Made by a program: the position numbers and the translations under genes | Notes under the pieces: generated by a model | What the model saw: only the letters and a program-made list of their open reading frames with translations | The model's database searches: none | What the model was told of the DNA's origin: nothing | Shown here: one piece after another, positions 20,630 to 39,641 of the stretch | Numbering within the stretch: position 1 is the stretch's first letter | Layout: each line of letters begins with the position of its first letter | Assembly: GCA_965248355.1 (NCBI GenBank) | Contig: OZ252098.1 | Location: forward strand, 2,912,001-2,976,000 | Reading direction: 5' to 3' | DNA: 64,000 bases | Source: Candidatus Latescibacterota bacterium | GTDB lineage: Bacteria; Latescibacterota; UBA2968; UBA8231

Positions 20630-20676
20630 TCGGGCCTGTGTGCAACGTGGCATCCCTCCAACCCCGTCGATGGGAT

Positions 20677-22069: not shown

Positions 22070-22705
22070 ATGCCCGGGGGCCGTTCCGCCCGCCTGGATC
22101 TGTCCACCCACTTCAACAACGCCGGCATCACCCCGGACGGGCGGCCGGGGGCCGGGGGCCTCGACGGGATGGGCACGGCCTTCCGCGCCGAGTGCCTCCC
22201 GGCCCCGGGGGGGACCATCGTCAGCGAGGAGACGCCCTTCCTCTTTCCGGGCCGGGACCGCGAGTCGAAGGACAACATCGCCTGCGAGGCCCAGGAGATC
22301 CCGTTGCCGCCGGGCGCCTGGGACGCCCTCCACGTGCTGGGCATGTGCGACTGGCGGGCCTTCGAGGAGCCCCTCCGGTTGAAGGCCCCCGACGGCACCT
22401 GCTTGGAGACGCGCCTGGGACTCAGCGACGCCCCGCGTTACCAGGGGCTTCAGTACGGAGAGAGCGTGGCTCTCTCGTGTCCACTGACGGCCCCCGATAC
22501 CTCGATTCCCCTTTCCTCCCTCATCGGGACCTCCCCGCCGGGAGCGGGTTACGAGATGAAGGAGACCCGCATCGAGGCGGGGATCTGGCACCAGGTGATC
22601 CACTTCCATGGGCCCCGGCCGCTATCGGGACTGGTGCTGCCGGACAACCCGTCCATGCACCTCTTCGCCTTGACCTTGGTCGCGGCGGACGAGGTCTCCC
22701 CATGA
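22070..22705 (+). CDS. Hypothetical beta-sandwich (carbohydrate-binding-like) protein; possibly the C-terminal domain of the upstream GT4
   Basis: LDLSTHFNNAGIT...DNIACEAQEIPLP...LHVLG...LPDNPSMHLFALTL; stop overlaps next start. Confidence 0.6.
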   Translation: MPGGRSARLDLSTHFNNAGITPDGRPGAGGLDGMGTAFRAECLPAPGGTIVSEETPFLFPGRDRESKDNIACEAQEIPLPPGAWDALHVLGMCDWRAFEEPLRLKAPDGTCLETRLGLSDAPRYQGLQYGESVALSCPLTAPDTSIPLSSLIGTSPPGAGYEMKETRIEAGIWHQVIHFHGPRPLSGLVLPDNPSMHLFALTLVAADEVSP

Positions 22706-23712
22706 AGAAGCGCATCGACGGTATTCCCTTCTGCACCAACCGGCACTACAACTGTGTCTACGTGGTGCTCGACAGCCTGCTGCGCTTCCACGGCCACGAG
22801 CCCACCGTGCCCTGCTTTTCCAATTGGGACTTCGTCTACTCCCGGGATGGCGGGCCGTTCGCCATCCACGGCCGCGCCATCCCCCTTCCCAGGATGCTCA
22901 ACGCCTTCGGGATCGGACTGCTCAACCGCGGCGCGGCGGACGGGGAAGCCGCGTGGAAGGCCGTGAGAACGCTGATAGACGCGGATACCCCGGTGGCCGT
23001 CGGCGTCGACGTCTTCGCCCTCGCCCGGGCCGGCCTCTACCCCCGCCTGCGCCATGCCGACCACCAGTACATCGCCGCCGGGTACGACGACGAGGCGGGT
23101 ACCGTCCACCTGATCGATCCCTCCCCCTGGCAGCCTTGTGCACGGGACCTCCCCCTCGGCCTGTTCCTCGCCAGTTGGGACATGAGCGAGTTCTCCGGGG
23201 TACGGGACCGGTACAACTGGACCTGGCTGGAGGCGCCGGCGCCACGTCCCACCTTGCGCCGCGGCCCCATGCAGGCCCTCCTGCGGCGCAACCTCCGGAG
23301 CATGTCGGCCTCCAGCGGCCAGGGCGGTCTCGTCCTGGGCCTGGAGGGTATCGGACAGCTCGCCGAGGATGCCGGGGCCTGGGCGGCATACGAGGAGCCC
23401 TTCCTCAAAAAGCACTTGCGGCGGTGCGCCGAGCTCCTGCTGGAGATCGCCGTGCTCCGGGAGGGGCACGGCCACTTCCTGCGCCACCTGGGCCAGCTCT
23501 TCGACCGTCCCGCGCTGGCCGGCCTCGGCGGGGAACTCGAGGCGATCTCGCAGGGCTGGTTCGTCGTGAAGAACCTGTGCCTCAAGGGCGCCCTCAAGGA
23601 GCCGGCGAGCCTCCTGCCCCGCATTCAGTCCCGGCTCCACGACATCGAGGCCCGCGAACGGAAAGCCCTGGCGGGGCTGGCAGCGGCGGTGGAAGCGCCG
23701 GCCCGGCTTTGA
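22702..23712 (+). CDS. BtrH N-terminal-like papain-fold protein (acyltransferase/peptidase)
   Basis: YNC (Cys), HQYIAAGYD (His), LIDP (Asp); helical C-terminal domain. Confidence 0.75.
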   Translation: MKKRIDGIPFCTNRHYNCVYVVLDSLLRFHGHEPTVPCFSNWDFVYSRDGGPFAIHGRAIPLPRMLNAFGIGLLNRGAADGEAAWKAVRTLIDADTPVAVGVDVFALARAGLYPRLRHADHQYIAAGYDDEAGTVHLIDPSPWQPCARDLPLGLFLASWDMSEFSGVRDRYNWTWLEAPAPRPTLRRGPMQALLRRNLRSMSASSGQGGLVLGLEGIGQLAEDAGAWAAYEEPFLKKHLRRCAELLLEIAVLREGHGHFLRHLGQLFDRPALAGLGGELEAISQGWFVVKNLCLKGALKEPASLLPRIQSRLHDIEARERKALAGLAAAVEAPARL

Positions 23713-23905: not shown

Positions 23906-25111
23906 ATGAACATCGGCCTGATCGGTCACGGCTTCCGGCCCATCGCCGGGGGCCTGGAGCGCCCGCTTCGGGACTGCGCCGCCGGCCTCGCCCGGCGCGG
24001 CTGCCGGGTCCGCGTGCTGTCCATCGTCGGAGAGGGGTGCCGGCTGCCGCGCGACGAGGTCCTGCACCCGCCCGGCGGCTCCCCCGTCCAGGTGCACCGG
24101 GCCGCGGTGCCGCGCCCGGCCGCCAACGGCGATCCTCTTGCCGAGCCGGAGATCCCGGCCAGCGCCTGCCGGGGGCTCGCCCCGCACTGGTGCTCGCTGC
24201 TGGCCGACGCCGACGTGGTCTGCACCTTCGGCGCTTCACCGGCCCTGGCCGGCGCCGAGGTCCGCGCGCGGCTCGGACTCCCCTTCATCGCCGTTCTCCC
24301 CGGTCTGCCCAGCCAGGCCGACGCCCGCTTCCAGGAGGTCCTGCGCTGCGGCGCCGATCTGTTCGTCGGCGTCTCCCGCTCCATGTGCCGGCGCGCCGAG
24401 GAGCGCTTCGGCCTGCGCATGATCCCGGTCTGCAACGGCGTCGATACCGGGTTCTTCCAGCCCGTAGCGGCCCCGGCCGCCGAGTCGGCCCTCGGCCGCT
24501 ACGAGGTGCTGCGCGGCCTCCCGGGCCCGCTGATCACCAGCCCCGCGCGGCTCGATCCGGGTAATGGGCTCGAGCTGCTGATCGAGGCCTTCGAGCTGGT
24601 CGTCTCCCTGCGCCCCGACACCAGTCTGCTGATCACGGGCCTCGGCAGCCTCCGCCATCACCCCCTGGGGAACTCCTACGCCGATTACCTGGCCGGCCTG
24701 GTGGAACTGAAGGAGCTGGGCGCCAAGGTGCGCTTCGGCCGCGGCGTGTTCGAGGCCCGGCACATGCCCGCTCTCTACTCGCGCTCCCACCTGTGCGTCC
24801 TGACCGGCGCCGGCGAGGGCTTCGGCCTCGAATGGGCCGAGTCGCTGGCCTGCGAGACACCGGTGGTGGCCACCCGCACCGAAGGCATGGCCGAACTCTT
24901 CGGCCACGGCACCGGAGGCCTCTTGGTCGACGGCCGCGATCCGGTGAAGGTGGCCCAGGGCATCCTCCCCCTGCTCGACGACGACGGCCTGCGGCGCCGC
25001 CTCGGCCGCAGCGGCCGCGAGCACGTCCGCCGCGCCTTCCCGCTGCAGGCGCAGGCCGACCGCTACCTCGAGCTGTTCACGTCCATCCGGGCCGCCCGCG
25101 CCGCCGCCTGA
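23906..25111 (+). CDS. Family 4 glycosyltransferase
   Basis: FRPIAGGLE, NGVDTGFF, ARLDPGNG, EGFGLEWAE (E-x7-E), TPVVAT. Confidence 0.88.
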   Translation: MNIGLIGHGFRPIAGGLERPLRDCAAGLARRGCRVRVLSIVGEGCRLPRDEVLHPPGGSPVQVHRAAVPRPAANGDPLAEPEIPASACRGLAPHWCSLLADADVVCTFGASPALAGAEVRARLGLPFIAVLPGLPSQADARFQEVLRCGADLFVGVSRSMCRRAEERFGLRMIPVCNGVDTGFFQPVAAPAAESALGRYEVLRGLPGPLITSPARLDPGNGLELLIEAFELVVSLRPDTSLLITGLGSLRHHPLGNSYADYLAGLVELKELGAKVRFGRGVFEARHMPALYSRSHLCVLTGAGEGFGLEWAESLACETPVVATRTEGMAELFGHGTGGLLVDGRDPVKVAQGILPLLDDDGLRRRLGRSGREHVRRAFPLQAQADRYLELFTSIRAARAAA

Positions 25112-25125
25112 GGAGACCGGAAAGG

Positions 25126-26559
25126 ATGCCTCAAATGCAGCCGGAGTTTCTCGAGTATCTCCATCTTCCCGACGACGGCACGGCCCTGCTGAAGCCCACC
25201 CTCGAGAGTCTGCTCGAGTTGGCCAGAGAAGAGGCCGGGGACGAGTTCCCGTCGATCCGGCAACGACTCGAGGACGCCCACGCCGCGCTCGGCGGCGATG
25301 CCCGGGCCGCCGCGAGTTCCTTCCAGGGGGTCCAGGCGGCATGGCCGAATCCCGCCGCTTCCATGGCGGCCGGCGTCGCCCTCGCCCTGGCGTCGGATTG
25401 GCGCGGCGCCCTGGAGGTCTTCTCCGCGAACGCCGACCTGCTCGAGGCGAGGGGCCTTCCCGAGGCGGCTCTGGGCTGCCGGCTGAACCAGGCCTACATG
25501 CACTCCGTTCTGGGCGACTCGTCCAGCGCCGAGTCGACCCTCGATCAAGTCGTGGGGGCCTCGAGGCTCGCCGGGAAGACCCGGCTGCTGGCAACCGGAC
25601 TCCACGCCAAGGCGGTCCTCCGGTTGCGTCACGGCCGTTTCCCGGAGGCCCGGCAGGAGTGTGAGAGGGCGATGGCGGAATGCCCCGGGGAGCCCGAGCT
25701 GGCCCAGGTCATGGGTACGCAGGGCGTTGCCTCCCAGGCCCTCGGAGAGCTCCCGCGGGCGGAGAAGGAGTTCAGGGCCTCCCTGTCGCTGGCCTCGGGG
25801 GCTTCGCCCTTAGCGGAGTTGCGGGCCTCGGTCAACCTGGCCGTGCTCTGCCAGCTCACGGCGCGCGGCACCGAGGCCCTGGACCTGCTCGCCGGGGCCA
25901 CGGCCATCGCCGAGCGGCAGGGGGACGTGCGGTTCCTCGCCAAGGTTCGGTTCCTGCGGGCCCTGCTGGCCTTCGCGGAGACCGGGGAGGAGGCCATCCC
26001 GGCCGCCCTCGACGGCGTCGAGCAGATGCGCATCCATGGCTACCGCAAGGGAGAGCTGGACTCCATTGCCATGGTGGTCCCGTGCCTCCTCGAGTGCGGC
26101 AAGGCCCTGGAAGCGGAGACCCTGGCCGCGTCGGCGGTGAGCACGGCGGAAGAAACCGGATACCTGGCCGGGCTCCTCGAAGCGATGTCCAGCGCCGCCC
26201 TGGTCCATCTCGCCGGCGCCGACCTCGAGCGCGCGAGGGAGATGGCTTGCCGCCTCCTTGAGAAGAGCGCCGCGGCGGAGCTGCCCATGATCGCCGTCAA
26301 GGCCCACCGGGTCCTGTCGGACGTGTCGCTGCAGGAGGGAGAGCCGGAAAGAGCCCTGGAGCACCTTCGACGGGCGGAGGGAGCGGCCGCGGAGATGGGG
26401 GCCCAGGTGCTGCAGTGCCACCTCATGGAGGGAGTGGCCGGCCTCCTCGAGATCTGCGGAAGAATCGACGAGGCCGAGGCGGAGAGAGCGGCCGCCCAGG
26501 CGCGGGCGCTCTCCATCGGAGTGGGGAGGACTACCGGAGTCGGGAACAACATCGAATGA
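25126..26559 (+). CDS. TPR-repeat (MalT-TPR-like) protein with no recognisable output domain
   Basis: Repeated Ala/Leu-rich helical TPR-like units (e.g. NLAVLCQLTARGTEALDLL). Confidence 0.7.
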   Translation: MPQMQPEFLEYLHLPDDGTALLKPTLESLLELAREEAGDEFPSIRQRLEDAHAALGGDARAAASSFQGVQAAWPNPAASMAAGVALALASDWRGALEVFSANADLLEARGLPEAALGCRLNQAYMHSVLGDSSSAESTLDQVVGASRLAGKTRLLATGLHAKAVLRLRHGRFPEARQECERAMAECPGEPELAQVMGTQGVASQALGELPRAEKEFRASLSLASGASPLAELRASVNLAVLCQLTARGTEALDLLAGATAIAERQGDVRFLAKVRFLRALLAFAETGEEAIPAALDGVEQMRIHGYRKGELDSIAMVVPCLLECGKALEAETLAASAVSTAEETGYLAGLLEAMSSAALVHLAGADLERAREMACRLLEKSAAAELPMIAVKAHRVLSDVSLQEGEPERALEHLRRAEGAAAEMGAQVLQCHLMEGVAGLLEICGRIDEAEAERAAAQARALSIGVGRTTGVGNNIE

Positions 26560-26608
26560 ACACGGGGGCATCTACGAGGGCGCTACATTCACCGGAAGGA
26601 GATCCATC

Positions 26609-26836
26609 ATGAACAGACTCATCAAGCCCCAGAAGCAGTCTTACACCGGCGAGGACGCCCAGGTCCTTGCTTATTCCGATGCCTGCGAGATAGCATGGCT
26701 CATGAACCTCTGCTCTGGCGGCATAGGCGCCGCAGTCTTGTTGGGCCTCGCCGTGCCGCCGGCCCTGGTCGCGTTCGGCGTGTCGTGCTTCATCATGTAC
26801 GTCATCACCTCGGCGGCGTGCAAGGGCTACATCTGA
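26609..26836 (+). CDS. RiPP/bacteriocin-like precursor peptide 1 (75 aa)
   Basis: GAAGGAG RBS; leader MNRLIKPQKQSYTGEDAQVLAY, 4-Cys hydrophobic core ending KGYI. Confidence 0.88.
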   Translation: MNRLIKPQKQSYTGEDAQVLAYSDACEIAWLMNLCSGGIGAAVLLGLAVPPALVAFGVSCFIMYVITSAACKGYI

Positions 26837-26950: not shown

Positions 26951-27166
26951 ATGAACAGACTCAACAAGCCCCGAAAGCAGTCCTACACGGGCGATGACAC
27001 TCAGGTCGTTGCCTACTCCCGTCTCTGCGAGATGACGTGGACGACCGCCTTCTGCACAAGCTCCCTGCCCTTCCTCGGCGGCGTGCATCCCTTCCTGGTC
27101 GCGGTGGGAGTGAGCTGCTCCATCTTCTCCATGGTCTGTTCGGCGGTGAGCAACGGTTACATCTGA
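26951..27166 (+). CDS. RiPP/bacteriocin-like precursor peptide 2 (71 aa)
   Basis: Same RBS/5' block; leader MNRLNKPRKQSYTGDDTQVVAY, core ending NGYI. Confidence 0.88.
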   Translation: MNRLNKPRKQSYTGDDTQVVAYSRLCEMTWTTAFCTSSLPFLGGVHPFLVAVGVSCSIFSMVCSAVSNGYI

Positions 27167-27387: not shown

Positions 27388-27609
27388 ATGAGCAAACTCA
27401 TCAAGCCGCAGAAGCAGTCCTACACCGGCGAGGACTCCCAGGTCCTTGCCTACTCCCTTGCCTGCGAGATTGCGTGGGCCACCCAGTACTGCGTGGCCTT
27501 GGTAGCGGTTGCTCTCATTTTTGGCGGGCCGGCTGGGGTGGCCGGGGTTGGCATCCTGTGTGTCGTCATCTACGTCGTCTCCACGTCGGCGTGCCACGGT
27601 TACATCTGA
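27388..27609 (+). CDS. RiPP/bacteriocin-like precursor peptide 3 (73 aa)
   Basis: Same RBS/5' block; leader MSKLIKPQKQSYTGEDSQVLAY, core ending HGYI. Confidence 0.88.
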   Translation: MSKLIKPQKQSYTGEDSQVLAYSLACEIAWATQYCVALVAVALIFGGPAGVAGVGILCVVIYVVSTSACHGYI

Positions 27610-27683
27610 CCTTCTCCCGAGAATTGCACCGTGCCTAGTACTCACTGACCAACCAAACCCCTTAGCGCCCCGTAGATGCCCCC

Positions 27684-29348
27684 ATGATCACAACATTCCT
27701 GTCGTCCTTGCCCCGGGTTTCGGAAGCGCTCTCCTACGCGGTCCGGGTCGAGGCCCGCACCCTGCGCCACGAGGCCCGGTCGAAGCCGGGAGACTTCTGG
27801 CCTGCCGTCGTACTCCTGGCCGCGGCCGGAGGGTTCTTCTGGCTGGGTCTCTGGTTATCACTCCACATCACCAAGGGCCTTCTCGGCGACGGGAACCCCG
27901 AGCTGGCCCTGGCCCTGGCCTCCGTGTTTCTCGCCTCCTACGCCTTCCTGTGGTTCTGCTTCGCCGTCGGCTTCGGCGGAGAGATCGTACCGATCTCCCG
28001 CCTGGAGAAGCTCGCCCAGCTTCGATGGACCCCGGGGCAGGCCTACGCGGCGGGCCTGGTGATGGCCGCCTTCAAGCCCCTGCCCCTGTTCTTCTCCCTG
28101 AGCTTCCTGACGATCGGGCTCACGCTCTTCCCGCCGGCCGGCGCCGCGTCCGTGCTGGCCTCGGGCCTGGCCACGGGCGTGACCGCTCTCGGCATCGTCG
28201 CCTTGACCCAGGGCGCCCGCTGCGCCATCGAGCTGGCGTCCTGGAAGGGCGCGCTGAGGACACTCGCCCGCGTCCTCGCGGGCGGACTGTTCGTGGCCCT
28301 GAGCCTGTTGCTCGCCTGGTCCCTGGTCGGCGGCGACTGGATCGAGCGGATTCGCGGGATTCCGGGCTCCTGGATCGAGATGGCGCCCACAAGCCTGCTG
28401 GCCCGGGCCTATCACCTGGCGGGGGAGGGACGCCTCGCGGACCTGCCGGGGCCCCTGGCCCTGCTCGGCGCCTTCGCGGCGGCCGGCTTCCTCTTCGGCT
28501 GGCGCCTCACCCGCCGGCGGGTCTTCCTCGCGGGCGGGTCCCGCCTGGCCCCGGCCGGCCCGCGCGACCGGATCCCGGGTCTGGCGCGGTGGCTCGGGCG
28601 GGTCCTGCCGCCGCCCTATCCGAACTTGGTGGTCCGCGAGGTGCTGGCCGCGATTCGCTGGAAGCAGCTCTGGATACAGGCGGCGTTGGCCGCGATGTTC
28701 GCATGCGGCGCTGCCATCACTCCTGCTCTCGCCCTCGCGGCCGGCGACGGACGCGCCAGTTTTCCCTACCCCTGGCAGATGCATGGCCTGGCGGTCGGCT
28801 TTCTCGCCGTCTTCCAGAGCGGGCTCGCGACCAACCTGTTCTCGAGAGACGGCAGGGCCGCCTGCGAGTACCTGCTTCTGCCCCTTGCCGAGCGGGAGAT
28901 CCTGGCGAGCAAGAACATCGCCTTCGCGATCATCCAGTACGCGGTGACGGCCCTCTGCGCCCCTGTCCTCCTCTTCGTGCTCTGGTTCCACGATCTCCTC
29001 GGACCCGGGCTCCAGGCCCTCGGGGCCGTGGTCCTGGCCCCCTTGGCGTTTGTCATCAGCGGCAACTATCTCTCGATCCTCAACCCCGCCAAGTCGCCCG
29101 GATCGAAGAAAGACCCGAGAGGCCATGTCCCGCGGAACAGCGGCCTCCTCCAGCTACTGCTGGGGACTCTCCTCGGCGCCGCGACGGCCCTGTATTTCTC
29201 GATCGATTCCGGGTACCTGCGCTACGCGGCGGCGGCCTTCGGGGTCCTGGCCGCGGCGGGGCTGCCGGCGGGGTACGTCCTCGCCCTGCGCCACCAGACC
29301 CGGCTGCTCCGGCAACGGCGCCTCGCCGTGGCGGAAGTGTTCTCGTAA
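27684..29348 (+). CDS. Polytopic ABC-2-type permease (export/immunity)
   Basis: ~12 TM helices; NLFSRDG..YLLLPL..ILASKN motif; precedes ABC ATPase. Confidence 0.75.
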   Translation: MITTFLSSLPRVSEALSYAVRVEARTLRHEARSKPGDFWPAVVLLAAAGGFFWLGLWLSLHITKGLLGDGNPELALALASVFLASYAFLWFCFAVGFGGEIVPISRLEKLAQLRWTPGQAYAAGLVMAAFKPLPLFFSLSFLTIGLTLFPPAGAASVLASGLATGVTALGIVALTQGARCAIELASWKGALRTLARVLAGGLFVALSLLLAWSLVGGDWIERIRGIPGSWIEMAPTSLLARAYHLAGEGRLADLPGPLALLGAFAAAGFLFGWRLTRRRVFLAGGSRLAPAGPRDRIPGLARWLGRVLPPPYPNLVVREVLAAIRWKQLWIQAALAAMFACGAAITPALALAAGDGRASFPYPWQMHGLAVGFLAVFQSGLATNLFSRDGRAACEYLLLPLAEREILASKNIAFAIIQYAVTALCAPVLLFVLWFHDLLGPGLQALGAVVLAPLAFVISGNYLSILNPAKSPGSKKDPRGHVPRNSGLLQLLLGTLLGAATALYFSIDSGYLRYAAAAFGVLAAAGLPAGYVLALRHQTRLLRQRRLAVAEVFS

Positions 29349-29366
29349 CAGGAGGCTGAGACCGAC

Positions 29367-30134
29367 ATGGAACCGACCGTGGAGCTGGAAGACCTGACCA
29401 AGCGTTACCGGTCCACCGTGGCCGTCCGTTCCCTCTCCCTGAAGGTGGAGCCGGGGGCGATCCTCGGTCTCGTGGGGCCGAACGGCGCCGGCAAGACGAC
29501 GCTGCTGAACATGTTGGCCGGGCTCCTCGAGCCGAGCGAGGGCTCGGTGCGCCTCTTCGGACGCACCTACGCCGAGGCCGGCAACGACATCCGGGCCCTC
29601 ACCGGCGTCATGCGGGACGATCCGGGGCTCTACGAGAGCCTCACCGGATCGGAGCACCTGAGCTTCACCGGCTCGGCGTACGGCCTCGATCCTGCAGAGG
29701 TCGCGGAGCGGTCCCGCGAGGTGCTGGCGTTCATGGACCTGGAGCAGGCCGCCGGCGAGACCGCCGCCACCTACTCGGCGGGCATGAGGAAGAAGCTGGC
29801 CCTGGCCTGCATCCTGCTGCACCGGCCCCGGATGGTCCTCCTCGACGAGCCCTTCGCCGCCCTGGACCCCGAAGCCGCCCTCCGGGTGGAGGAGCTGCTC
29901 CGCCGGCTGTCGGCCGGCGGCGCCACCGTGGTCCTCAGCTCCCACGTCCTCGAGCGCGTCGACCGGCTCTGCTCCGAGCTGGCCTTCATCAACAAGGGAG
30001 AGCTGATCCTGCGGGGCCCGCCCGACGAGCTGCGCGCCCGGGGGGCCGAGGGCAAGAAGGCCGGGAGTCTCGAGGAGCTGTACATGGATCTCGTCGCCCC
30101 GGAAGGGGAGCGGCGGGGGCTCTCGTGGTTGTGA
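29367..30134 (+). CDS. ABC transporter ATP-binding protein
   Basis: GPNGAGKTT, YSAGMRKK, LDEP, SSH. Confidence 0.92.
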   Translation: MEPTVELEDLTKRYRSTVAVRSLSLKVEPGAILGLVGPNGAGKTTLLNMLAGLLEPSEGSVRLFGRTYAEAGNDIRALTGVMRDDPGLYESLTGSEHLSFTGSAYGLDPAEVAERSREVLAFMDLEQAAGETAATYSAGMRKKLALACILLHRPRMVLLDEPFAALDPEAALRVEELLRRLSAGGATVVLSSHVLERVDRLCSELAFINKGELILRGPPDELRARGAEGKKAGSLEELYMDLVAPEGERRGLSWL

Positions 30135-31885
30135 GCCTGCCGGGCTGGCTCTCCTTTCGGCGACGGAAGCCGGCGGGGGGGTCCCTCCTCCCCTTTCTCT
30201 GGACCTTCCTCAGGCCCTACCGGCTGCGCGCGGCCGAGGCCTTCGCCGCCATGGTCCTGGCGGCGGCCCTCACCGTGCCCCTGCCGCTGGTGACGATCTA
30301 CCTCGTGGACGAGGTCTTCGCGGCCGGCTCGCGGAACACCCTCCACGTCGTCTGCGCCGGGGTGCTGGCCGTCTCCATCCTGAGCACGCTCCTGAGCCTG
30401 CTGCAGAGCTACCTGCTCACCGTCTTCGCGCGGCGCGTGTTCTTCGACATGGAGGTCACCCTCACCCGGAGACTGCTCGCGCAGTCGGCGGCCTACTTCC
30501 GAAAGGCGAGCCCCGGCTATCTCGCCACCCGGGCCAGCGACGACGTGCGCCAGCTCGGGGCCCTCATGGCCGGGACCTGGATCCAGGCCATGAACTCGGC
30601 CTTCGTGCTCGTCGTGGGCGCCGCGGTGATGACCGCCCTGAGTCCCGGGCTGGCCGCGATCCTGCTGGCCCACGTGCCCGTCCTGGCCGTGGTCAGCGTG
30701 CTCGTGGGTCAGAGGGTCCACGACCTCAACGCCGCGGTCCAGGAGCGCCGGGGGCAGACCCAGGCGGTGCGCATCGAGTCGCTGGAGAACATCACGGTGG
30801 TCAAAGCCTTCGGCGCCGAGCGCCGGCAGGTCGGACTGATCGCCAACAGGCTGCACCAGGAGCTCGACGCGGGCCTGGCCCGCGATGTCCGAGTGCTGGC
30901 GCTCTCCGGTGTCCAGAGCCTGGTGCACGCCGCCGGCTTTCTCGTCCTGCTGTGGGTGGGCGGGCTCGAGGTGATGAACGGCCAGCTGTCGCTCGGACAA
31001 CTCCTGGCGCTCAACTCCCTTCTCGCCCTCGTGCTCACGCCGACGGTACAGCTGTCCAACGTCTACATGAGCGTCAAGATGGCCCTCGGGATCCTGCAGC
31101 GGGTGCGCGACTTCGCCGGGCTTCCCCTGCACAGGGAGCGCGCCGGCAAGCCGCTCCTCGACATCGGTCCGGGCCGCGTGGAGTTCGAGAAGGTCTCCTT
31201 CCGGTTGCCGGGAGGGGGCGCCGTTCTGCACGACGTGTCGGCCACCTTCCCGGCCGGCCGGATCACCGCGGTGGTGGGCGGGACCGGAATGGGCAAGAGC
31301 ACGCTTGTGCGGCTCCTGCTCCAGCTGGAGGCCCCGTCGCGGGGATCGATCCTGATCGACGGCCGGGACTCGAGCGAATACGACCCCCGGAGCATCCGGG
31401 CCCACATCGGCTACGTCGAGCAGGAGGTGCACCTGTTCTCGGCGACGATCCGCCAGAACATCCTCTACGGCCGTCCCAGGGCCGCCGGAGACGACCTGGC
31501 CTGGGCGATCGAGATATCCGACTGCGCCGAGTTCCTCTCCCGGTTCCCGGACGGGATGGACACGCGCATCGGCGCCAACGGCGTCGAGCTCTCCAGGGGC
31601 CAGAAGCAGCGAGTCTGCCTGGCCCGGGCCATGGTCCGCAGACCGAGGATCCTCGTTCTCGACGAGACCACCGCCTCCCTGGACCCCGAGACCGAACAGA
31701 CCGTGATCCGCGCCCTGACGCAGGCCGGCGAGGGACGGACGACCGTCTACGTGAGCCATCGCCTCGCCTCGCTGGATTTCGCCGACCGGGTCGTGGTCAT
31801 GAACGGCGGGCGGGTGACGGGGGAAGGCAGTTTCCAGGACTGGGTCTCCGGAGGCGGGCCGGTCGCCGCCAGTGCCGGCCCATGA
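30125..31885 (+). CDS. Fused ABC exporter (TMD+NBD) without a C39 peptidase domain
   Basis: 6-TM domain then GGTGMGKST, LSRGQKQR, LDETT. Confidence 0.9.
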   Translation: MVVSLPGWLSFRRRKPAGGSLLPFLWTFLRPYRLRAAEAFAAMVLAAALTVPLPLVTIYLVDEVFAAGSRNTLHVVCAGVLAVSILSTLLSLLQSYLLTVFARRVFFDMEVTLTRRLLAQSAAYFRKASPGYLATRASDDVRQLGALMAGTWIQAMNSAFVLVVGAAVMTALSPGLAAILLAHVPVLAVVSVLVGQRVHDLNAAVQERRGQTQAVRIESLENITVVKAFGAERRQVGLIANRLHQELDAGLARDVRVLALSGVQSLVHAAGFLVLLWVGGLEVMNGQLSLGQLLALNSLLALVLTPTVQLSNVYMSVKMALGILQRVRDFAGLPLHRERAGKPLLDIGPGRVEFEKVSFRLPGGGAVLHDVSATFPAGRITAVVGGTGMGKSTLVRLLLQLEAPSRGSILIDGRDSSEYDPRSIRAHIGYVEQEVHLFSATIRQNILYGRPRAAGDDLAWAIEISDCAEFLSRFPDGMDTRIGANGVELSRGQKQRVCLARAMVRRPRILVLDETTASLDPETEQTVIRALTQAGEGRTTVYVSHRLASLDFADRVVVMNGGRVTGEGSFQDWVSGGGPVAASAGP

Positions 31886-32325
31886 GGATTCCCTCCCGCA
31901 TCGAGTGGACCGGGGCAGCGGTCCTGATCTGCGCGGCCGCCTGCTCCCTGCTCCTGCTGATGGGGCTGGTCCTCATCGACGTGGAGCGGGGGGTCCGGGT
32001 CTCGGGGACGGTGACGGGAGGGGATGGTACCTGGCGGCTCGAGGGCCCCGTGTCGAGCCGGAGTCTCGGGCTCCTGGGCGACGCCCGGTACGTCCTCGCC
32101 GCGAGGGGGAACCGCCGGATCCTGTTGGGAGAAGTGCGGGCGGTCGACGCGCGGTTCCGCCCAGGCGCGGGGGAAGTCCTCGCCGCCGTGGAGTTCGAGT
32201 CCACGGCCAACGGCGACGGCCGGTCCCATCCCGTGGAAGAGGGCCCCGCGAGCCTTTTCCTGGCCACACGGCCTTCGGGGCCCTTGCTGCTCGCCCTCCT
32301 CGAAAAGGTGAGCCCCGCGAGGTAA
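31882..32325 (+). CDS. Small membrane-anchored protein (truncated HlyD/adaptor-like)
   Basis: N-terminal TM then 'DVERGVRVSGTV'; ATGA overlap with exporter. Confidence 0.5.
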   Translation: MRIPSRIEWTGAAVLICAAACSLLLLMGLVLIDVERGVRVSGTVTGGDGTWRLEGPVSSRSLGLLGDARYVLAARGNRRILLGEVRAVDARFRPGAGEVLAAVEFESTANGDGRSHPVEEGPASLFLATRPSGPLLLALLEKVSPAR

Positions 32326-32415
32326 AGCGCGAGGGGCGCCTGGGGAGACGCCCGTGCGATCGTTCCCGGAGAGTCCGGGAATGCCCGCCTGAGCCAAACC
32401 AGAAAAGGTCATGTC

Positions 32416-33189
32416 ATGAAGAGATGGGCAGAGAGAGGCACGAAGGAGGAGGAGAGGGCGCACCTGGTGGACCGCGTGCGCCTCGTGGTGGCGTCGCCGC
32501 GGCAGGCTCTCGGCGCCATCCTCGAGAGCCGCCCCTGGGTGGACGTATTCGTGGTGCTGAGCCTGGGGAGCGCGCTGTTCTCGTGCCTCTCCCTGCACCT
32601 GGCGGGGGACCAACTGGAGCTCGTGCCGGCCGGACTGCTCACCGAGTCCCAGCAGGATGTCGTCGCCGTCCTGAGGTTCGCGGCGATCGTCCTGCTTGCG
32701 TTCCCGGTCACCCTCGTCAGCCTCCTGGCGCCCGCGTTCTTCCTGTGGCTGCTGGTGCAGATGTTCGAGGAATGGAGCGACTTCCGGTCGATCCTGGCCG
32801 TCGTCGCCCACGCGAGTCTGGTGTTGCTGTTCTCCCAGGCGGCGGACACCATCCTGCTCGCCCTGAGATTGCAGGGGCAAGAGGCCGTGGGCCTCTCGGA
32901 GATGGGAGCCCAGGCCGATCTGGGCCTGCTCTTCGACCTCGGCGGGGCCCCCCTTCTCGCGGTCCTCCTGTCGTACACCAGCCCTTTCAAGATCTGGTTC
33001 TATGGACTCCTCGTCCTCGGCATCGGCCGGGCCTGCCGGCTGACCTGGCCGCGCAGCGCCGGCGTCGTGGCGCTCCTCCTCGTCGCCAGCCTCGCGCTGA
33101 GAGTGAGCCTCACCTTCCTGACGGATTCGGCCTCCGAGTCCCTCACCGCCGACTCCGACTGCCCCGCCTGCGAGCTGCTGCCACACTGA
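32416..33189 (+). CDS. Yip1-domain membrane protein with C-terminal CxxC
   Basis: VVASPRQAL...FRSILAVVAHA...SPFKIWFYGLLVLGI; ends DSDCPACELLPH. Confidence 0.8.
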   Translation: MKRWAERGTKEEERAHLVDRVRLVVASPRQALGAILESRPWVDVFVVLSLGSALFSCLSLHLAGDQLELVPAGLLTESQQDVVAVLRFAAIVLLAFPVTLVSLLAPAFFLWLLVQMFEEWSDFRSILAVVAHASLVLLFSQAADTILLALRLQGQEAVGLSEMGAQADLGLLFDLGGAPLLAVLLSYTSPFKIWFYGLLVLGIGRACRLTWPRSAGVVALLLVASLALRVSLTFLTDSASESLTADSDCPACELLPH

Positions 33190-35114
33190 TGGCCAATCTC
33201 TCCTTTGCGGACCTGACGGGACGTGGGGTGCGCGTCGCCATCATCGACAGCGGCCTCGACACCTCCCGCCCCGACCTCGCGAGGAACGTCGTCGGAGGCG
33301 TCTCGATCCAAGTCGGGGACGACGGGACCATTCGGCGGAGCGAGGACTACGCCGACGAGGCGGGACACGGCACCGCCTGCGCCGGGATCCTCCGCGGCCT
33401 GGCTCCCGAGGTGGAGCTGTCGATCATCCGGATCTTCGACGCCCTCCTCTCCGCCCGGGCCTCGGTCCTGGAGGCCGCCCTCGAGCACGCCGGCGAGGAG
33501 GGCGCTCACGTCATCAACGCGAGCCTCGGAGTCACCGACACCGCGGTCGCCGGCCGTCTCCGGGATGTCTGCCGCAGCCTTCAGCGCGCCGGCATCTGCA
33601 TCGTCTCCGCTCAACCCCGCGGCGGCGAGCGCAGCTTTCCCGCGGAGTTCGAGGAGGTGATCGGCGTCGAGGACGGGGACGTCCGCGGCAAGTACGGGTA
33701 CCACTACCGCGCCGGCCGGCCCATCGAATGCGTCGCCAAGGGAGGCCCCCGCCGGGTCGTCTGGCTGAACGGGGAAGAGGCGCTGAAGAGCGGCGCGAGC
33801 TACGCCGCACCCCATATCAGCGGCATCGTGGCGCTCCTGAAGGAACGGTACCCAACGGCCGGCCTCGAGGAGATGCGGAGGCTGCTCGAGAGCAACGCCA
33901 CCAGCCCCCCGAGCGCGAGTCCCCGGGGACGGGGGAAGAAAGCCCGGAGCCCCGGGGGAAAGGGGCGCCCCGGCCGGGTGGATCGGCGGCCCTCCTCGCC
34001 GTGGATGCGCCGCGTCGTCCTGTACCCCTACAGCAAGGAGCTCCACGGCCTCGTCCGCTTTCGGGATCTCACGGGCCTGGAGGTGGTGGGCGTGGCCGAT
34101 CCGGCGGGCCGGCGCCTGGTGGGCAAGGACGCGGGAGAAGCGATCGGCGCGGAACCCGCGGGTGTCATGATCGGGCCTGCCCTCGCCGGCGAGCTGGGCG
34201 CCGGTGACACGGTGATCCTGGGCTATCTCGACGAGCTCGGACGGATCGCGAAACGCGACCTGCTGAGGGATGCCATCGAAGCCGCCCTCGCCGGCAACCG
34301 CAACGTCTACAGCCTGAATGCGGTGCCCGAGTTGAGGTATGGAGACTTGTACGCCGAGAGCCGCCGCAGGGGGCTCCGGTTGGCCTATCCCTCGGTCTCC
34401 ATCGCCGAGGTGGAGAGGACGATCCGGGAGAAGTCGACCCTGGGCAAGATCGCCGTGCCCGTCATCGGCTTCTTCGGGACGAGCTCCCAGCAGGGAAAGT
34501 TCACCGCCCAGCTGGCCTTGCGCCGCCATCTGCTGAAGCAGGGCTACCGGGTCGGCCAGCTCGGCACGGAGCACCAGTCCGGGCTCTTCGGTTTCGACTA
34601 CACCTTCCCCATGGGGTACGCCTCGCCCCTCGAACTGCCCCTTCAGCGCTTCGAGCCCTTCCTGGACGCCAAGCTCAGGGAGATCCATCACGACAAGAAG
34701 CCCGATGTGCTCATCGTCGGGTCCCAGTCGGGCACCATCCCCTTCGCCATCGACGAGCCCCGGAGCCATCACTTCGGGAGTCTCGCCTTCCTGTTGGGCG
34801 CCAAACCCGATGTCTGCGTGCTGGCGGTCAACTGCATGGACCCGGAGGAGTACGTGAGGCACACCATCGACGCCATCCGGATCGTCGGGAAGGCCCGGAC
34901 GATCTGTCTCCTGCTCAGCGACAAGCAGAGGCGCGTGGAGTCGGCCCATGGCCACACCTGGATGAGTTCCAGGGTCCTGAAGGGCGCGGCGCTGCAGGAG
35001 GCGCTGAAGGACCTGGAGGACCGGTTCGGCCTTCCCGCGGTATGCCCCGCCGACCCCGGCGGTCAACGCCGCCTCGCAGAGACCGTGGAGACGGCGCTCT
35101 CGGCGGCCGCCTGA
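33189..35114 (+). CDS. S8 peptidase fused to a DUF1611/TIGR04066-like P-loop domain (peptide maturation protein)
   Basis: IIDSG / GHGTACAG / SGASYAAPH triad; C-terminal PVIGFFGTSSQQGKFT...GYRVGQLGTE...VGSQSG. Confidence 0.8.
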   Translation: MANLSFADLTGRGVRVAIIDSGLDTSRPDLARNVVGGVSIQVGDDGTIRRSEDYADEAGHGTACAGILRGLAPEVELSIIRIFDALLSARASVLEAALEHAGEEGAHVINASLGVTDTAVAGRLRDVCRSLQRAGICIVSAQPRGGERSFPAEFEEVIGVEDGDVRGKYGYHYRAGRPIECVAKGGPRRVVWLNGEEALKSGASYAAPHISGIVALLKERYPTAGLEEMRRLLESNATSPPSASPRGRGKKARSPGGKGRPGRVDRRPSSPWMRRVVLYPYSKELHGLVRFRDLTGLEVVGVADPAGRRLVGKDAGEAIGAEPAGVMIGPALAGELGAGDTVILGYLDELGRIAKRDLLRDAIEAALAGNRNVYSLNAVPELRYGDLYAESRRRGLRLAYPSVSIAEVERTIREKSTLGKIAVPVIGFFGTSSQQGKFTAQLALRRHLLKQGYRVGQLGTEHQSGLFGFDYTFPMGYASPLELPLQRFEPFLDAKLREIHHDKKPDVLIVGSQSGTIPFAIDEPRSHHFGSLAFLLGAKPDVCVLAVNCMDPEEYVRHTIDAIRIVGKARTICLLLSDKQRRVESAHGHTWMSSRVLKGAALQEALKDLEDRFGLPAVCPADPGGQRRLAETVETALSAAA

Positions 35115-35116
35115 AG

Positions 35117-36061
35117 ATGACCGGACCCATGGGAGCGATGAGGAAGGCGATGCTCGCCGCGCTCGCGGCGGGCCTGTTCGTGCCGGGATGCCGGGGCGGC
35201 CAGGAAAGCTCCACGGTGCCGGGGCACCCGGTCGTCCGGGCCGTCCGTGGAGAGCTGACCGACAGGCTCTCGGCCGATGGCCGTCTCGAGTTCGCCGAGA
35301 TCGTGGACGTCAGCTCCACTCTCTCGGGCACCGTGACCTGGATCGCCGGGGAGGGTGGGATCGTGAAGGAGGGTGACCGGGTCGCCACCGTGCGGGGGCG
35401 GCAGGGACGGACCGCCAACGTCCCGGCGACCCGGGGAGGCACCGTGGTGAAGCGGCACGTGGACGCGGGAGAGAGCGTCCTCTCCGGTTTCGAGGGCGGG
35501 ACCGCGCTGGTATCCATCGCCTCCACGGAGAGCTTCATCGCCCGCTGCGACGTGGCCGAAGTGGACGTCGAGTCCTGGAGCCGGGACGGGCCGGCGGAAA
35601 TCACCGTGCAGGCCTTCCCCGAAGACCGCCTCGAGGGACGGGTGAAGCGGATTTCGAAGATGGGCCGCAGGAGCCCGGGCAGCCACATGATCACCTTTGA
35701 AGCGGTGATCGGCCTGCAAGAGACCACCGACCGGCTGCGCCACAACATGTCCTGTGTCGTGGAGGTTCCGACGTACGTGCAGAGGGACGTGATCTCCCTG
35801 CCGTTGCAGGCCGTCGTGCTCGAGGGCTTCGAAGCCGCCGCCTGGAGAGCCCGCGGTCCGGTGGGAGCCCGCGCCTGGTTGTGCTCGGCGGAGGACCCCG
35901 GCGGCGGAGGCGCGGCGCCGGCTTGCCCCCGGGACCACTTCAGGCAAGTGGGGCTGAGGATCTCGCGAGGCACGGAGAGCCGCGTCGTGGTCCTGTCCGG
36001 GCTCCGGGCCGGGGATCTCGTCGCCGCCGATGCAGCCGCCCTCGAGGAGGAGGCGGAGTGA
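35117..36061 (+). CDS. Efflux periplasmic adaptor (MacA-like), putative lipoprotein
   Basis: Lipobox-like VPGC, lipoyl-type repeats, LSGLRAGDLV terminus. Confidence 0.8.
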   Translation: MTGPMGAMRKAMLAALAAGLFVPGCRGGQESSTVPGHPVVRAVRGELTDRLSADGRLEFAEIVDVSSTLSGTVTWIAGEGGIVKEGDRVATVRGRQGRTANVPATRGGTVVKRHVDAGESVLSGFEGGTALVSIASTESFIARCDVAEVDVESWSRDGPAEITVQAFPEDRLEGRVKRISKMGRRSPGSHMITFEAVIGLQETTDRLRHNMSCVVEVPTYVQRDVISLPLQAVVLEGFEAAAWRARGPVGARAWLCSAEDPGGGGAAPACPRDHFRQVGLRISRGTESRVVVLSGLRAGDLVAADAAALEEEAE

Positions 36062-37281
36062 GTCCGCGTCTCAGGCGCCGTTGCCGAGTTGCCAGGGCCG
36101 CCGTGGTGCAGGGCCTCCGGTATCAGCTCCGCGGCAACCTGCCGCGCACCGCCCTCGCCTGTTTCGGGATCACCGTGGGCGCGGCGGGGCTTGTTGCGGT
36201 GCTGTCCGTGGGCGGCGGGCTCAGACGCCTGCTGATCTCGGACGCCCGGCAGGCGGGGGGCCATCTGAGCGTGATCATCGCGCCGCCGCCGGGCCCGGAG
36301 AGACGCGCCCCCCTGACTCTGGCGGATATCGATCGCATCGGACGGATTCCCGGCGTGGAAGCCGTGGTCCCCGAGACCAGCGCCCCGGGGCGGATAGGGG
36401 CCGGAGGGCGGCAGGTTCCGGCGCAGGTGCGGGGGGTCACACCGGAGTTCCTGTCCCGCCGCGACTGGGGGCTGGACAGGGGCCGGGGGATCGTCACCGA
36501 GGATGTGTACTCGTCGCGGCGAGTCTGCGTCCTCGGCCACTCCGTCGCCTCCCGGCTGTTCCCCGACGCGCAGAGGACGGACGGCGCCGTATCCATCGAT
36601 GGCCTGCGGTTCTCCGTGGCCGGGGTGCTGGAGCCACGCTCCCCTCGGGATCCGGGCGGCAACGACGTGGTGCTCGTCCCCATCACGACCTCCCTCGAGG
36701 CGCTCCGGATCCGGGAAGTCGGCAGGGCGACCGTTCAGGCCGCCCACGTGGAGGAGGTCCCCGCCATCGTCGAACGAATCAAGACGTGGCTGGCGCGGGA
36801 GCACCGATACGGCGAGGACTTCCGGGTCCGTTCGGCCGTCGCCGACGCCCAGGGCGCCGTCCGGGCCCTCCGGGGGATCGAGGTGTCGCTGGGGGCGTTG
36901 GCGGCGATCTGCCTCGGCCTCGGGGGCCTGGGCATCCTGAACGTCATGCTGGCCTCTCTCGATGAGCGCGTCTACGAGATGGGTCTGCGCTCGGCCATCG
37001 GGGCTCCCGGCCACGCCCTCCTGCTGCAGCTCCTGGCCGAGTCACTCGCCATGAACCTGGCGGGCTTCCTCCCGGGGATCGCCCTGGGCGCCGGGGTCTC
37101 GTCCTGCGTGGAGTGGTCCGTCTCCCTCTTCCTGCCCGGGGCTGACTTCCGCGCAGCCGTAACGGGCGAGGCCTTGCTGGCGGCCGGGCTGGCCTCGGGC
37201 GGGGTCGGCCTGCTGTCGGGGGTCTTCCCGGCTCTGCGCGCGGCGCGCATGAGCCCGGTGCAGGCCCTGAAGGAGACCTGA
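36058..37281 (+). CDS. MacB/FtsX-family ABC permease
   Basis: GGLGILNVMLASLDERVYEMGLRSAIGA; PALRAARMSPVQALK. Confidence 0.88.
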   Translation: MSPRLRRRCRVARAAVVQGLRYQLRGNLPRTALACFGITVGAAGLVAVLSVGGGLRRLLISDARQAGGHLSVIIAPPPGPERRAPLTLADIDRIGRIPGVEAVVPETSAPGRIGAGGRQVPAQVRGVTPEFLSRRDWGLDRGRGIVTEDVYSSRRVCVLGHSVASRLFPDAQRTDGAVSIDGLRFSVAGVLEPRSPRDPGGNDVVLVPITTSLEALRIREVGRATVQAAHVEEVPAIVERIKTWLAREHRYGEDFRVRSAVADAQGAVRALRGIEVSLGALAAICLGLGGLGILNVMLASLDERVYEMGLRSAIGAPGHALLLQLLAESLAMNLAGFLPGIALGAGVSSCVEWSVSLFLPGADFRAAVTGEALLAAGLASGGVGLLSGVFPALRAARMSPVQALKET

Positions 37282-37287
37282 GAGGGA

Positions 37288-38511
37288 ATGCGGAGTCTGC
37301 ACGCGGCGCCCATGGCCCTGGCGGCGATACGGCGGTTCCGCCTGAGGGCCGTCGTCGCGGTCGTCTCGGTGGCCATCGGAGTCGCAGCCATGGTGGCGAT
37401 CCAATCCTTCGGCGCCGCCATCCAGCGGCTGGTGATGGGCGAGCTCGGCAGGCTCGGGCTCGAAGGGCTGGTCCTGGTGCACCCCCGTCCGGCGCTGGCC
37501 CTGCAGGGGCCGGGGCCGATGCTGACCCTGCAGCAGGTGCGGGAGCTCGAACGCGGCGTGCCCGATCTCGACTACGTCGTGCCCATCTTGCATTTGGATC
37601 TCGAGATCCGGTCCGGAGGCCGCGGGACGTATGCCCGGGCCACGGGCACGGCACCCGACTACCGCCGGCTTCTCGGAGACAAGATGGCGGCGGGCCGGTT
37701 TCTCGACGAGACCGACGATCTGACTCGCCGCAGGGTCTGTGTCCTCGGCGCCGACCTGGCCAAGCGACTCCTGCGAGGCGGCCATCCCGTTGGACGGAAG
37801 GTCCTCCTGGCCGGCACCACCTACACGGTCGTGGGAGTGCTCGAGGGAAGGCGGTTGATGGATTCCGCCTGGGGCGACGAGCGGCTCATCATCCCCATCC
37901 GCACGCTGCAGAGCTTTCACGGGGGGCCGCCCGGGATCCACGCCATCCACGCATCCCTGGCGGCCGGTGCCGACGCTTCGAGAGCTCTGGCCGCGGTTCG
38001 TCGAGGGCTGGCCCGCGGCGGCGGCGGCCAGGACCTCGATCATTACGAGGTCATGAGCGGCCGGGAGGTGCTTCAGGACATCAACCAGGCCCTGATCGTG
38101 GCGCGCCTCGTGACGACGGCCATCGCCGGGATGGCCCTGCTCGTCGGGGCCGTGGGCGTCCTCAATACCATGCTCATCTCGGTGGAGCAGCGTGTCTGCG
38201 AGATCGGCCTTCGCAAGGCCCTTGGCGCCCGGCCGATGGCCCTCGTGAGCCAGTTTCTCACCGAGGCCGTGGTCCTGAGCTGCTGCGGGGGAGTACTGGG
38301 CCTGGCGCTGGGATGGGGGCTCGCCAGGGGCGGGGAGGCGGTGCTCTCCGGATGGCTCGGAACCTCCATGGCAGGGTCCACCGACTGGGGGACCGCGGGG
38401 CTCGCCCTCGCCGTCTCCCTGACCGTGGGCATCTGCTCCGGCGTCGTCCCCGCGGTTCAGGCCGCGGAACTCCCTCCCGCGGAGGCCATGAGGAATGCTG
38501 GTCGAGCTTGA
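37288..38511 (+). CDS. MacB/FtsX-family ABC permease
   Basis: GVLNTMLISVEQRVCEIGLRKALGA. Confidence 0.88.
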   Translation: MRSLHAAPMALAAIRRFRLRAVVAVVSVAIGVAAMVAIQSFGAAIQRLVMGELGRLGLEGLVLVHPRPALALQGPGPMLTLQQVRELERGVPDLDYVVPILHLDLEIRSGGRGTYARATGTAPDYRRLLGDKMAAGRFLDETDDLTRRRVCVLGADLAKRLLRGGHPVGRKVLLAGTTYTVVGVLEGRRLMDSAWGDERLIIPIRTLQSFHGGPPGIHAIHASLAAGADASRALAAVRRGLARGGGGQDLDHYEVMSGREVLQDINQALIVARLVTTAIAGMALLVGAVGVLNTMLISVEQRVCEIGLRKALGARPMALVSQFLTEAVVLSCCGGVLGLALGWGLARGGEAVLSGWLGTSMAGSTDWGTAGLALAVSLTVGICSGVVPAVQAAELPPAEAMRNAGRA

Positions 38512-39208
38512 ATCCGCCTGCAAGGTCTACCGGAAGGGGCCGGAGCGGGTGCGCGCCCTGTGGGATGTCGACGCCGCCTTCGGCCCCGGAGAGTTCGTGG
38601 CCCTCATGGGTCCCTCCGGCTCCGGGAAGACGACGATGCTCAACATCATCGGCTGTCTCGACTACCTGACGGCGGGGAGGTATCTGCTGCAGGGAGAGGA
38701 TGTAACCGGCTTGAATCCCATCCGCCTCGCCGAGGTCCGAAGCCGGAAGATCGGGTTCGTCTTCCAGAGCTTTCACCTGCTGCCGAGGGCGACGGCCGCG
38801 GAGAACGTCGAGCTCCCCCGGATCTACGCGGGATCAAGCCGGCGCCAGCGCAGAGAGTGCGCCCACGCGGCCCTCGAACGAGTCGGACTGGCGGATCGCC
38901 GCGACTTCCGGCCGGAAGAGCTGTCCGGGGGCCAGCGGCAGCGAGTGGCCATCGCCAGGGCCCTGGTGAATGAACCCTCTCTCATTCTGGCCGATGAGCC
39001 GACCGGCAGCCTGGACCCCCAGGCCGCCGGAGGGGTCATGGACCTCTTCACGAGACTGAACGACGAAGGCATCGCCATCGTCCTGGTCACCCACCAGGAA
39101 GACGTGGCACGGCACGCCAGGCGGAAGATCCGCCTGGCCGATGGGCGGGTGATCCCCGCACCCGACGGACCGGCGTGTCCCGCGCAAACACGAGAGACCC
39201 ACAGATGA
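38495..39208 (+). CDS. MacB/LolD-type ABC ATP-binding protein
   Basis: GPSGSGKTT, LSGGQRQR, ADEPTG, VTH. Confidence 0.92.
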   Translation: MLVELESACKVYRKGPERVRALWDVDAAFGPGEFVALMGPSGSGKTTMLNIIGCLDYLTAGRYLLQGEDVTGLNPIRLAEVRSRKIGFVFQSFHLLPRATAAENVELPRIYAGSSRRQRRECAHAALERVGLADRRDFRPEELSGGQRQRVAIARALVNEPSLILADEPTGSLDPQAAGGVMDLFTRLNDEGIAIVLVTHQEDVARHARRKIRLADGRVIPAPDGPACPAQTRETHR

Positions 39209-39471
39209 CGAAAGCGGAGATCACCGGCAGGGTCCGGGAGGCCGTGGTGAAGGCCCTTGAGCTGCCCATCGGGCCCGAGGAACTCCCCGAGAGCGAGCCC
39301 CTCTTCGGCGCCGACGGCGAAGTCGATTCGATCCTGTCGATCAAGCTGGTCGTCGAGCTGGAGGAAGCCTTCGGAATCGACGTCGACGATGACGATCTGA
39401 CGGAGGAACTCTTCGGGACGGTCGCGGCCCTGGCGGCGTACGTGGAAACCAAACTGGCTGGCCGGGGGTGA
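39205..39471 (+). CDS. Acyl carrier protein
   Basis: Acidic 88 aa; VDSILSIKLVVELEEAFGIDV with the phosphopantetheine Ser. Confidence 0.88.
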   Translation: MTKAEITGRVREAVVKALELPIGPEELPESEPLFGADGEVDSILSIKLVVELEEAFGIDVDDDDLTEELFGTVAALAAYVETKLAGRG

Positions 39472-39641
39472 ACCGGCGCGCACTCTGGAGGCACAATGAA
39501 GTCTTGGTTGCAGAACATCGCCGCCGGCAACGGGCGGCGCTGCCGAGGTGGCCAAAAGACGGCGACCTCCGCGAGAGCCGCCGCCTGACCCACCTAAGCA
39601 CGAGTGATGTAGACACTTACCATCACTACACACTTACAATC

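Follow-up and report, generated by a model that had tools for sequence, protein, structure and literature searches.

What a subtilisin-like (S8) protease fused to a DUF1611 domain might do in a gene cluster for short ribosomal peptides is the question raised by a locus of a Candidatus Latescibacterota bacterium. The locus lies in a stretch of 64,000 nucleotides, referred to here as the window (GenBank assembly GCA_965248355.1, contig OZ252098.1, positions 2,912,001 to 2,976,000 of the forward strand), and the fusion gene occupies positions 33189..35114; it and the other cluster genes given by position below are on the plus strand of the window. The answer preferred here, to which a probability of roughly one in three is attached, is a relay. 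The S8 domain would cut the precursor peptides after a leader ending in V-x-A-Y, the P-loop domain of the DUF1611 part would load an acyl group onto a dedicated carrier protein, and a neighboring BtrH-fold enzyme would pass this group to the peptide amine exposed by the cut, ahead of export. As for its parts, cleavage of the leader by the S8 domain after the Tyr of V-x-A-Y is considered quite likely, and some carrier-dependent acylation of the core has somewhat better than even odds.

The fusion gene is a single open frame encoding 641 amino acids. A longer frame of 1080 amino acids, open back to position 31872, was rejected since it overlaps two real genes and the homologues are 641 amino acids long, and the ATG of the 641-residue frame is taken to be correct because it overlaps the stop codon of the upstream Yip1 gene and close homologues have 640-641 amino acids. 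A frameshift or assembly artefact is not supported, as the frame is free of indels in contigs from three assembled runs of two studies (one run is possibly the source of the window DNA). The S8 domain (33219..33902) matches Peptidase_S8 (PF00082) over residues 11-238 with 83 bits (gathering cut-off 21.8), and its top Foldseek matches are subtilisins. The catalytic residues D20, H60 and S204 are conserved in 81, 82 and 83, respectively, of 83 aligned family members, and since the catalytic Asp is already at residue 20 there is no room for a signal peptide or a prodomain. A flexible linker rich in Pro, Arg and Gly follows (33903..34004; 21-75 residues in the family), of which residues 242-267 are disordered or of low confidence in the full-length model (predicted template modeling score 0.59). 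The remainder has the two parts of a DUF1611 fold, a Rossmann-like subdomain (34005..34448) and a P-loop subdomain (34449..35060). DUF1611 (PF07755) matches residues 421-624 with 48.7 bits (gathering cut-off 25), and the P-loop, GTSSQQGKFT, spans residues 430-439 (34476-34505), where G430, T431, G436 and K437 are invariant in 83/83 family members. Folded alone, the C-terminal part reaches a predicted local distance difference test score of 88.8, and the model matches three solved DUF1611 proteins, 2g0t (TM0796), 2obn and 7xrj (DgcN), at structure-comparison Z scores of 29.2, 27.8 and 24.3, with the next fold at 14.3. The match to DgcN has a Foldseek E of 2e-12 and a Z of 24.3 over 306 aligned residues. 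A PDB sequence search with the C-terminal domain alone gave only a weak match to 2g0t (E 0.2), which reached 1e-5 with a profile. An intact Asp/His/Ser triad, the lack of a signal peptide, a Pro/Arg linker and a Rossmann-like region with a DUF1611-like P-loop had all been read from the letters in a preliminary description of this DNA, and these features are borne out by the profiles and models.

The likely substrates of the S8 domain are encoded by three tandem genes (26609-27609) which, judging by their sequences, are products of duplication. Precursor 1 (26609..26836) has a leader ending in VLAY and a hydrophobic, Cys-containing core, and precursors 2 (26951..27166) and 3 (27388..27609) have leaders ending in VVAY and VLAY; the leader of 22 amino acids is shared by all three, and a genome-wide look for further precursors returned only these three. 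The same leader type was first seen at other loci by unbiased clustering of small open reading frames (ORFs). A leader matrix was trained on 32 leaders of other loci, picked by hand from a pattern search; the A-Y end of these leaders came partly from selection, and precursors held out of the training are the actual test of the matrix. A score of at least 16 was reached by 70 of 12,389 sense small ORFs, training leaders included, versus none of 12,073 antisense ORFs. Two held-out precursors of the window reached 16.9 and 20.6, and gut peptides that were also held out reached as much as 28.8; the gut leaders recovered in this way end in AY, LY or IY. Two Bacillus peptides scored 14.3 and 13.1, and a CLI_3235 peptide of Clostridium pasteurianum scored 14.7, a range in which only 3 of the 12,073 antisense ORFs reach 14. 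All 19 aligned precursors have K6 and Y22, and the cores diverge. The cores, of 11 to about 120 residues, begin with S, H, D, E, N, G, A and other residues across loci, so the earlier idea that an N-terminal Ser is a special site of acylation has to be given up. Four loci (L016, L017, L039 and L067) have a variant leader that ends in V-E-A-Q before short Cys-rich cores.

Across phyla, leaders that end in V-x-A-Y are found next to the fusion gene, and the closest NCBIfam model to the S8 part is QhpE (NF049966; 125 bits, below the 165-bit cut-off), which together make the S8 domain the best candidate for the leader peptidase. Subtilisin specificity suits a hydrophobic P4 and an aromatic P1 residue, as found in this leader end. 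QhpE is described as a subtilisin-like protease that removes a leader in the cytoplasm, ahead of export by an ABC transporter (PMC7876137). The ABC exporter of the cluster (30125..31885) was scanned and has no C39 domain, in agreement with the preliminary description. Its designation of the fusion as the best leader-peptidase candidate stands on leader co-occurrence and QhpE, with the reservations that the cluster encodes a second protease-fold enzyme and that the oxyanion Asn of the S8 domain is replaced.

DgcN, an N-acetyltransferase of the DUF1611 family, uses D-glutamate and acetyl-CoA as substrates, and the link to this enzyme made in the preliminary description holds for the fold and fails for orthology. 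The fusion has no match at E≤0.05 to NF041892, the DgcN model, which has a cut-off of 480 bits, and the identity between the fused domain and DgcN is 17-18%. The DgcN motifs GTDC..GK, TGQTG, EGQG..FH and LCH align with GTSS.QGK, GTEH, GSQSG..P and VVN of the fusion in an alignment with 22% identity, for which the DgcN profile had only 4 sequences. The genome has, moreover, a second DUF1611 gene, which scores 251 Pfam bits and 504 bits against NF041892, matches PDB 7xrj from one end to the other and has a DgcA gene as its neighbor; this canonical dgcN-dgcA pair (L082, G000:C1:3821338-3824928) passes both NCBIfam cut-offs. On the strength of the NF041892 score, the replaced motifs and the separate true pair, the fused domain was ruled out as a DgcN orthologue. 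It matches TIGR04066 with 110 bits over residues 275-612, below the cut-off of 200 bits, and comparison of its profile with that of 63 TIGR04066 proteins gave a probability of 99.95% and an E of 1.5e-37. These profile comparisons place the fused domain nearer to TIGR04066, a member of the clostridial CLI_3235/CcpM peptide system, than to DgcN. In the phylum, 46 of 101 genomes have TIGR04066-like matches, up to 7 per genome, and the 200-bit cut-off was passed in none of the 101.

The case for a carrier-dependent reaction comes from the genes that accompany the fusion. A search for homologues found 432 among 7,994 candidates, with both domains in 114 of the 120 listed, and a profile search found 1,868 clusters (at 50% identity) at E≤0.001 and 724 at E≤1e-30. 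The best 80 of 133 confirmed genome hits gave a first set of 78 loci, mostly from Candidatus Latescibacterota; a more distant alignment gave a second set of 80 of 412 metagenome loci, of which those with a named source are mostly from the gut, as well as six Bacillus plasmids. Besides a carrier and usually a BtrH-fold gene, the fusion keeps company with an ABC exporter and with precursors whose common leader precedes unrelated cores. A carrier gene, usually directly 3' of the fusion, was found by profile search at 68/78 loci of the first set and 47/80 of the second, including 50 of 52 loci with full flanks (L016 and L039 are the two without) and all 19 gut loci of at least 18 kb. The Ser of the carrier is kept in 71/71 and 47/49 aligned hits of the two sets and is invariant in the fused clade (68/68). 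A BtrH-fold gene is present at 49/78 and 41/80 loci, with 40 of the 52 full-flank loci and 17 of the 19 long gut loci among them; the BtrH profile was built from the first set only, which leaves the second count held out. The window has both, a dedicated carrier protein with a phosphopantetheine Ser, S42 (39205..39471), and a BtrH-fold protein (22702..23712), and the genome has two matches to phosphopantetheinyl transferases. Neither the window genes nor the 27 + 15 neighbor representatives scanned include an acyl-activating enzyme, which leaves the P-loop domain as the candidate for loading the carrier.

The BtrH-fold protein of the window matches BtrH_N (PF14399) with 46 bits (cut-off 29.7) and resembles AziU3 (E 3e-9); the product of the gene before it (22070..22705, start inferred) is AziU2/Azi28-like (E 2e-13 to AziU2 in a PDB sequence search). 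Cys18, His121 and Asp139, a triad assigned from sequence, are invariant in 16 of 16 BtrH-fold proteins of the window type, to which the AziU3/Azi29-like protein of the window belongs, and the AziU2-like gene directly precedes the window-type BtrH gene at 14 of the 15 loci that have it, mostly right after the carrier. BtrH and AsbE are described as using carrier-bound donors, free acceptors and a Cys-His-Asp triad (PMC12865890). By analogy with them, the 22702-23712 protein may be an amide-forming enzyme with a carrier-bound donor and hence a rival of the DUF1611 domain for the acyl transfer itself. As a separate observation, about 15 ribosomal-peptide loci have the AziU2/AziU3-like pair, known from non-ribosomal aziridine formation, next to the carrier gene.

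In Paenibacillus and Roseburia clusters, TIGR04066 is reported to accompany a radical SAM enzyme, a carrier-related protein, a separate subtilase and an ABC transporter (PMC10731318; PMC4573289), and such a cluster also occurs on two Clostridium plasmids. The consensus of 63 clostridial TIGR04066 sequences at the P-loop is ERTNKF, versus GTSSQQGKF in the fusion. The clostridial carrier-like protein lacks the Ser at 2/2 loci, and no BtrH gene is annotated at the two Clostridium plasmid loci. This joint loss of the P-loop, the carrier Ser and BtrH suggests that the three parts act in one thioester pathway. On the C. pasteurianum plasmid the S8 protein (L184:10420-11970) ends in a degenerate DUF1611-like tail (E 8e-5), and a separate TIGR04066 gene lies next to it, an arrangement that looks, to go by these matches, as if an ancestral fusion had been duplicated and its roles split. 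A wider and still tentative proposal, rated somewhat short of an even chance, is that of a widespread peptide class in which one short leader brings almost any core to the fusion, the holo-carrier and the BtrH-fold enzyme; the leader would be cut and an N-terminal acyl cap added by thioester relay, with the clostridial TIGR04066/TIGR04069 system as a catalytically decayed offshoot. On a C. tagluense plasmid (L183:10238-11505), three identical genes for precursors of 67 amino acids alternate with carrier-related genes.

A number of points weigh against the relay. Acylation, substrate and binding are all predicted from sequence and fold. The chemistry known for the DUF1611 fold, from a PDB title and an NCBIfam name, is amine N-acetylation, not carrier loading, and the BtrH-fold pair of the window is closest to AziU2/U3, an aziridine-forming enzyme described as functionally unrelated to CtaG despite a similar fold (PMC12865890; PMC11168924). 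The majority of BtrH-fold partners belong to a second type, which has no conserved Cys (32 sequences; 8/8 full N-termini), so transfer by way of a Cys thioester cannot be general across loci, and at 11 of the 52 full-flank loci a carrier gene is present and a BtrH-fold gene is missing within 10 kb. The co-occurrence loci are kin and were counted without a random-locus control, the carrier profile was built from the same loci in which it counts carriers (both sets), and the clostridial co-loss rests on two loci as regards the carrier and BtrH. Precursor 2 is absent from the ORFs that score at least 13 with the leader matrix. Finally, alignment with subtilisin places Arg144 of the fusion at the position of the oxyanion Asn.

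A rival is the scheme of the preliminary description, in which the fusion alone cuts and then acylates: the DUF1611 domain would acylate the freed amine directly from an acyl-carrier or acyl-CoA, with no requirement for Ser, and the BtrH-fold protein would be an accessory. The fold of an N-acetyltransferase (DgcN, Z 24.3) fits this scheme, the fusion would channel the new amine, and varied first core residues are what a reaction with the alpha-amine would allow; the DUF domain is also the only catalytic-looking partner at every carrier-bearing locus, given that most BtrH-fold partners have no Cys. Yet the DgcN motifs are replaced in the fused domain, no other gene of the clusters would load the carrier, and the BtrH-fold gene is kept at 40/52 and 17/19 loci. 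Direct acylation is judged unlikely, if still a serious competitor. Alternatively, there may be no acylation at all, with the DUF1611 domain and the carrier-like protein serving as a scaffold, or as a nucleotide-gated clamp, to hold the leader and link its removal to tailoring and export. A non-catalytic role of this kind does exist in clostridia, which retain a P-loop-degenerate TIGR04066 and a Ser-less carrier, with a degenerate DUF1611-like tail on the S8 protein in C. pasteurianum, and the tailoring enzymes around the core module (radical SAM, MNIO, glycosyltransferases, GNAT) vary freely. For the fused clade, however, the invariant P-loop (83/83) and carrier Ser (68/68) suggest chemistry; a pure scaffold is rated as likely as direct acylation.

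Asn is the oxyanion-hole residue of S8 proteases and is present in 73/83 family members; Arg144 is common to the window fusion and its three closest homologues, and its codon is the same in the contigs of the second study, as far as the differences listed go. In the same four-member clade the Thr that precedes the catalytic Ser is replaced by Ala203. A reading in which the S8 domain has little activity, or serves just to bind the leader, and the Cys-His-Asp enzyme of BtrH/AziU3 type cuts the leader or does other core chemistry, would suit these two substitutions and the intact triad and weak Peptidase_C39_2 match (E 0.005) of the 22702-23712 protein, but is improbable given the intact Ser-His-Asp triad of the S8 domain, the V-x-A-Y end in all three precursors, the many same-leader loci with Cys-less BtrH-fold proteins only or none, and the precedent of QhpE, described as a slow, near single-turnover S8 protease (PMC7876137).

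The rest of the cluster is made up as follows. Two GT4 glycosyltransferases are encoded at 20638..21912 (start uncertain; cluster membership inferred from position) and 23906..25111, and a TPR protein found at 7/78 related loci at 25126..26559. After the precursor genes come a large permease with an ABC ATPase, likely for immunity or export (27684..30134), the exporter, a membrane-anchored ORF of 146 amino acids with no Pfam match (31882..32325) and the Yip1/YknW-like membrane protein (32416..33189). An HlyD-like adaptor, two MacB/FtsX permeases and an ABC ATPase (35117..39208) separate the fusion from the carrier gene. The window cores are hydrophobic two-helix peptides with paired cysteines, for which reason the mature products are probably membrane-active. 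A perfect 36-nucleotide direct repeat follows precursors 2 and 3 (27213-27248 and 27654-27689), its second copy overlapping the start of the permease gene, and there is no Rfam match within 20000-42000. No RNA data set was listed as holding this DNA, which carries no weight as to expression. No radical SAM gene is found among the genes at 20638-39788; one at 14841-16049 lies outside, past unrelated genes, in an upstream region (14841-18086) with AhpC/TSA, an A24 prepilin peptidase and a short pilin-like ORF, which is treated as outside the cluster. Four paralogous secreted-looking proteins with an N-terminal HIGDEIYPF-like motif are encoded at 9979-10884, 13768-14775, 18172-19101 and 19237-20250, and the two of them that were scanned have no Pfam match. 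Just beyond the cluster, at 40193-42855, are an AbiEii-type AAA ATPase gene of lower GC content and IS3-like transposase ORFs.

Neighboring genes vary elsewhere. The first set of loci has GNAT, rhodanese, MauE, thioredoxin-like and CAAX-protease genes where the window has the two GT4 genes, and radical SAM/SPASM genes occur at 46 of the 80 loci of the gut set and MNIO on a Bacillus plasmid. One Bacillus plasmid cluster from a cultured host (L182:9639-16544) combines the module with an MNIO (DUF692) pair and two precursors of 44 amino acids. In a close relative of the window (L003:1-4400), the transport, fusion and carrier genes are kept, and in the 4.4 kb covered the precursor and TPR genes are replaced by unrelated nuclease/ATPase-like genes.

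The module is common. It is found as well in gut metagenomes and on plasmids of Bacillus, there in the company of radical SAM or MNIO enzymes, and its leader motif offers a route to precursors missed by family libraries. TIGR04066 and the carrier-related TIGR04069 are found in annotated bacteriocin clusters with no assigned function; the SacP23 paper guesses that TIGR04066 serves immunity (PMC10731318). By keeping the P-loop and the carrier Ser, the fused form provides a catalytically intact system in which to test the function of both families. If capping does occur, a core-tolerant system that cuts and acylates would be useful for peptide engineering, and, within the literature searched, it would give DUF1611 domains or BtrH/AziU-fold enzymes their first role in the maturation of ribosomal peptides. 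No paper on a fused S8-DUF1611 module was found in that literature, whose coverage excludes most subscription journals.

Among known systems, DgcN shares with the fused domain the whole fold of two subdomains and the G-T-x4-G-K loop, and differs in having a DgcA neighbor in its own locus, where the fusion has none. QhpE differs in lacking a second domain and in acting on QhpC, whereas small and varied peptides are found at the fusion loci. The window pair has PF14399, the Cys-His-Asp triad and the AziU2-like partner in common with BtrH/AsbE/CtaG and AziU2/U3 (PDB 7wuw, 8gs1), which are described from non-ribosomal pathways (PMC12865890), and itself belongs to a ribosomal-peptide cluster. The nearest parallel is the clostridial and Paenibacillus system, for example the SacP23 cluster, whose parts are given as a CLI_3235 precursor (TIGR04065), CcpM (TIGR04068), TIGR04066, TIGR04069 and a separate S8 protease (PMC10731318; PMC4573289). 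A TIGR04066-like domain, an S8 protease, a carrier-like protein, an ABC exporter and a short precursor with the same leader type are common to both. In the window the S8 and TIGR04066-like domains are fused, with a TIGR04066 score below the cut-off, there are BtrH/AziU-like and glycosyltransferase genes and no radical SAM gene, and the cores are longer and hydrophobic. As far as domain matches tell, the window gene is a fused form of two known cluster members, the separate subtilase and TIGR04066. The list of parts is accordingly familiar from an uncharacterized clostridial system, and what appears to be new is their fused, catalytically intact-looking form, which has a BtrH/AziU-like partner and lacks a radical SAM enzyme.

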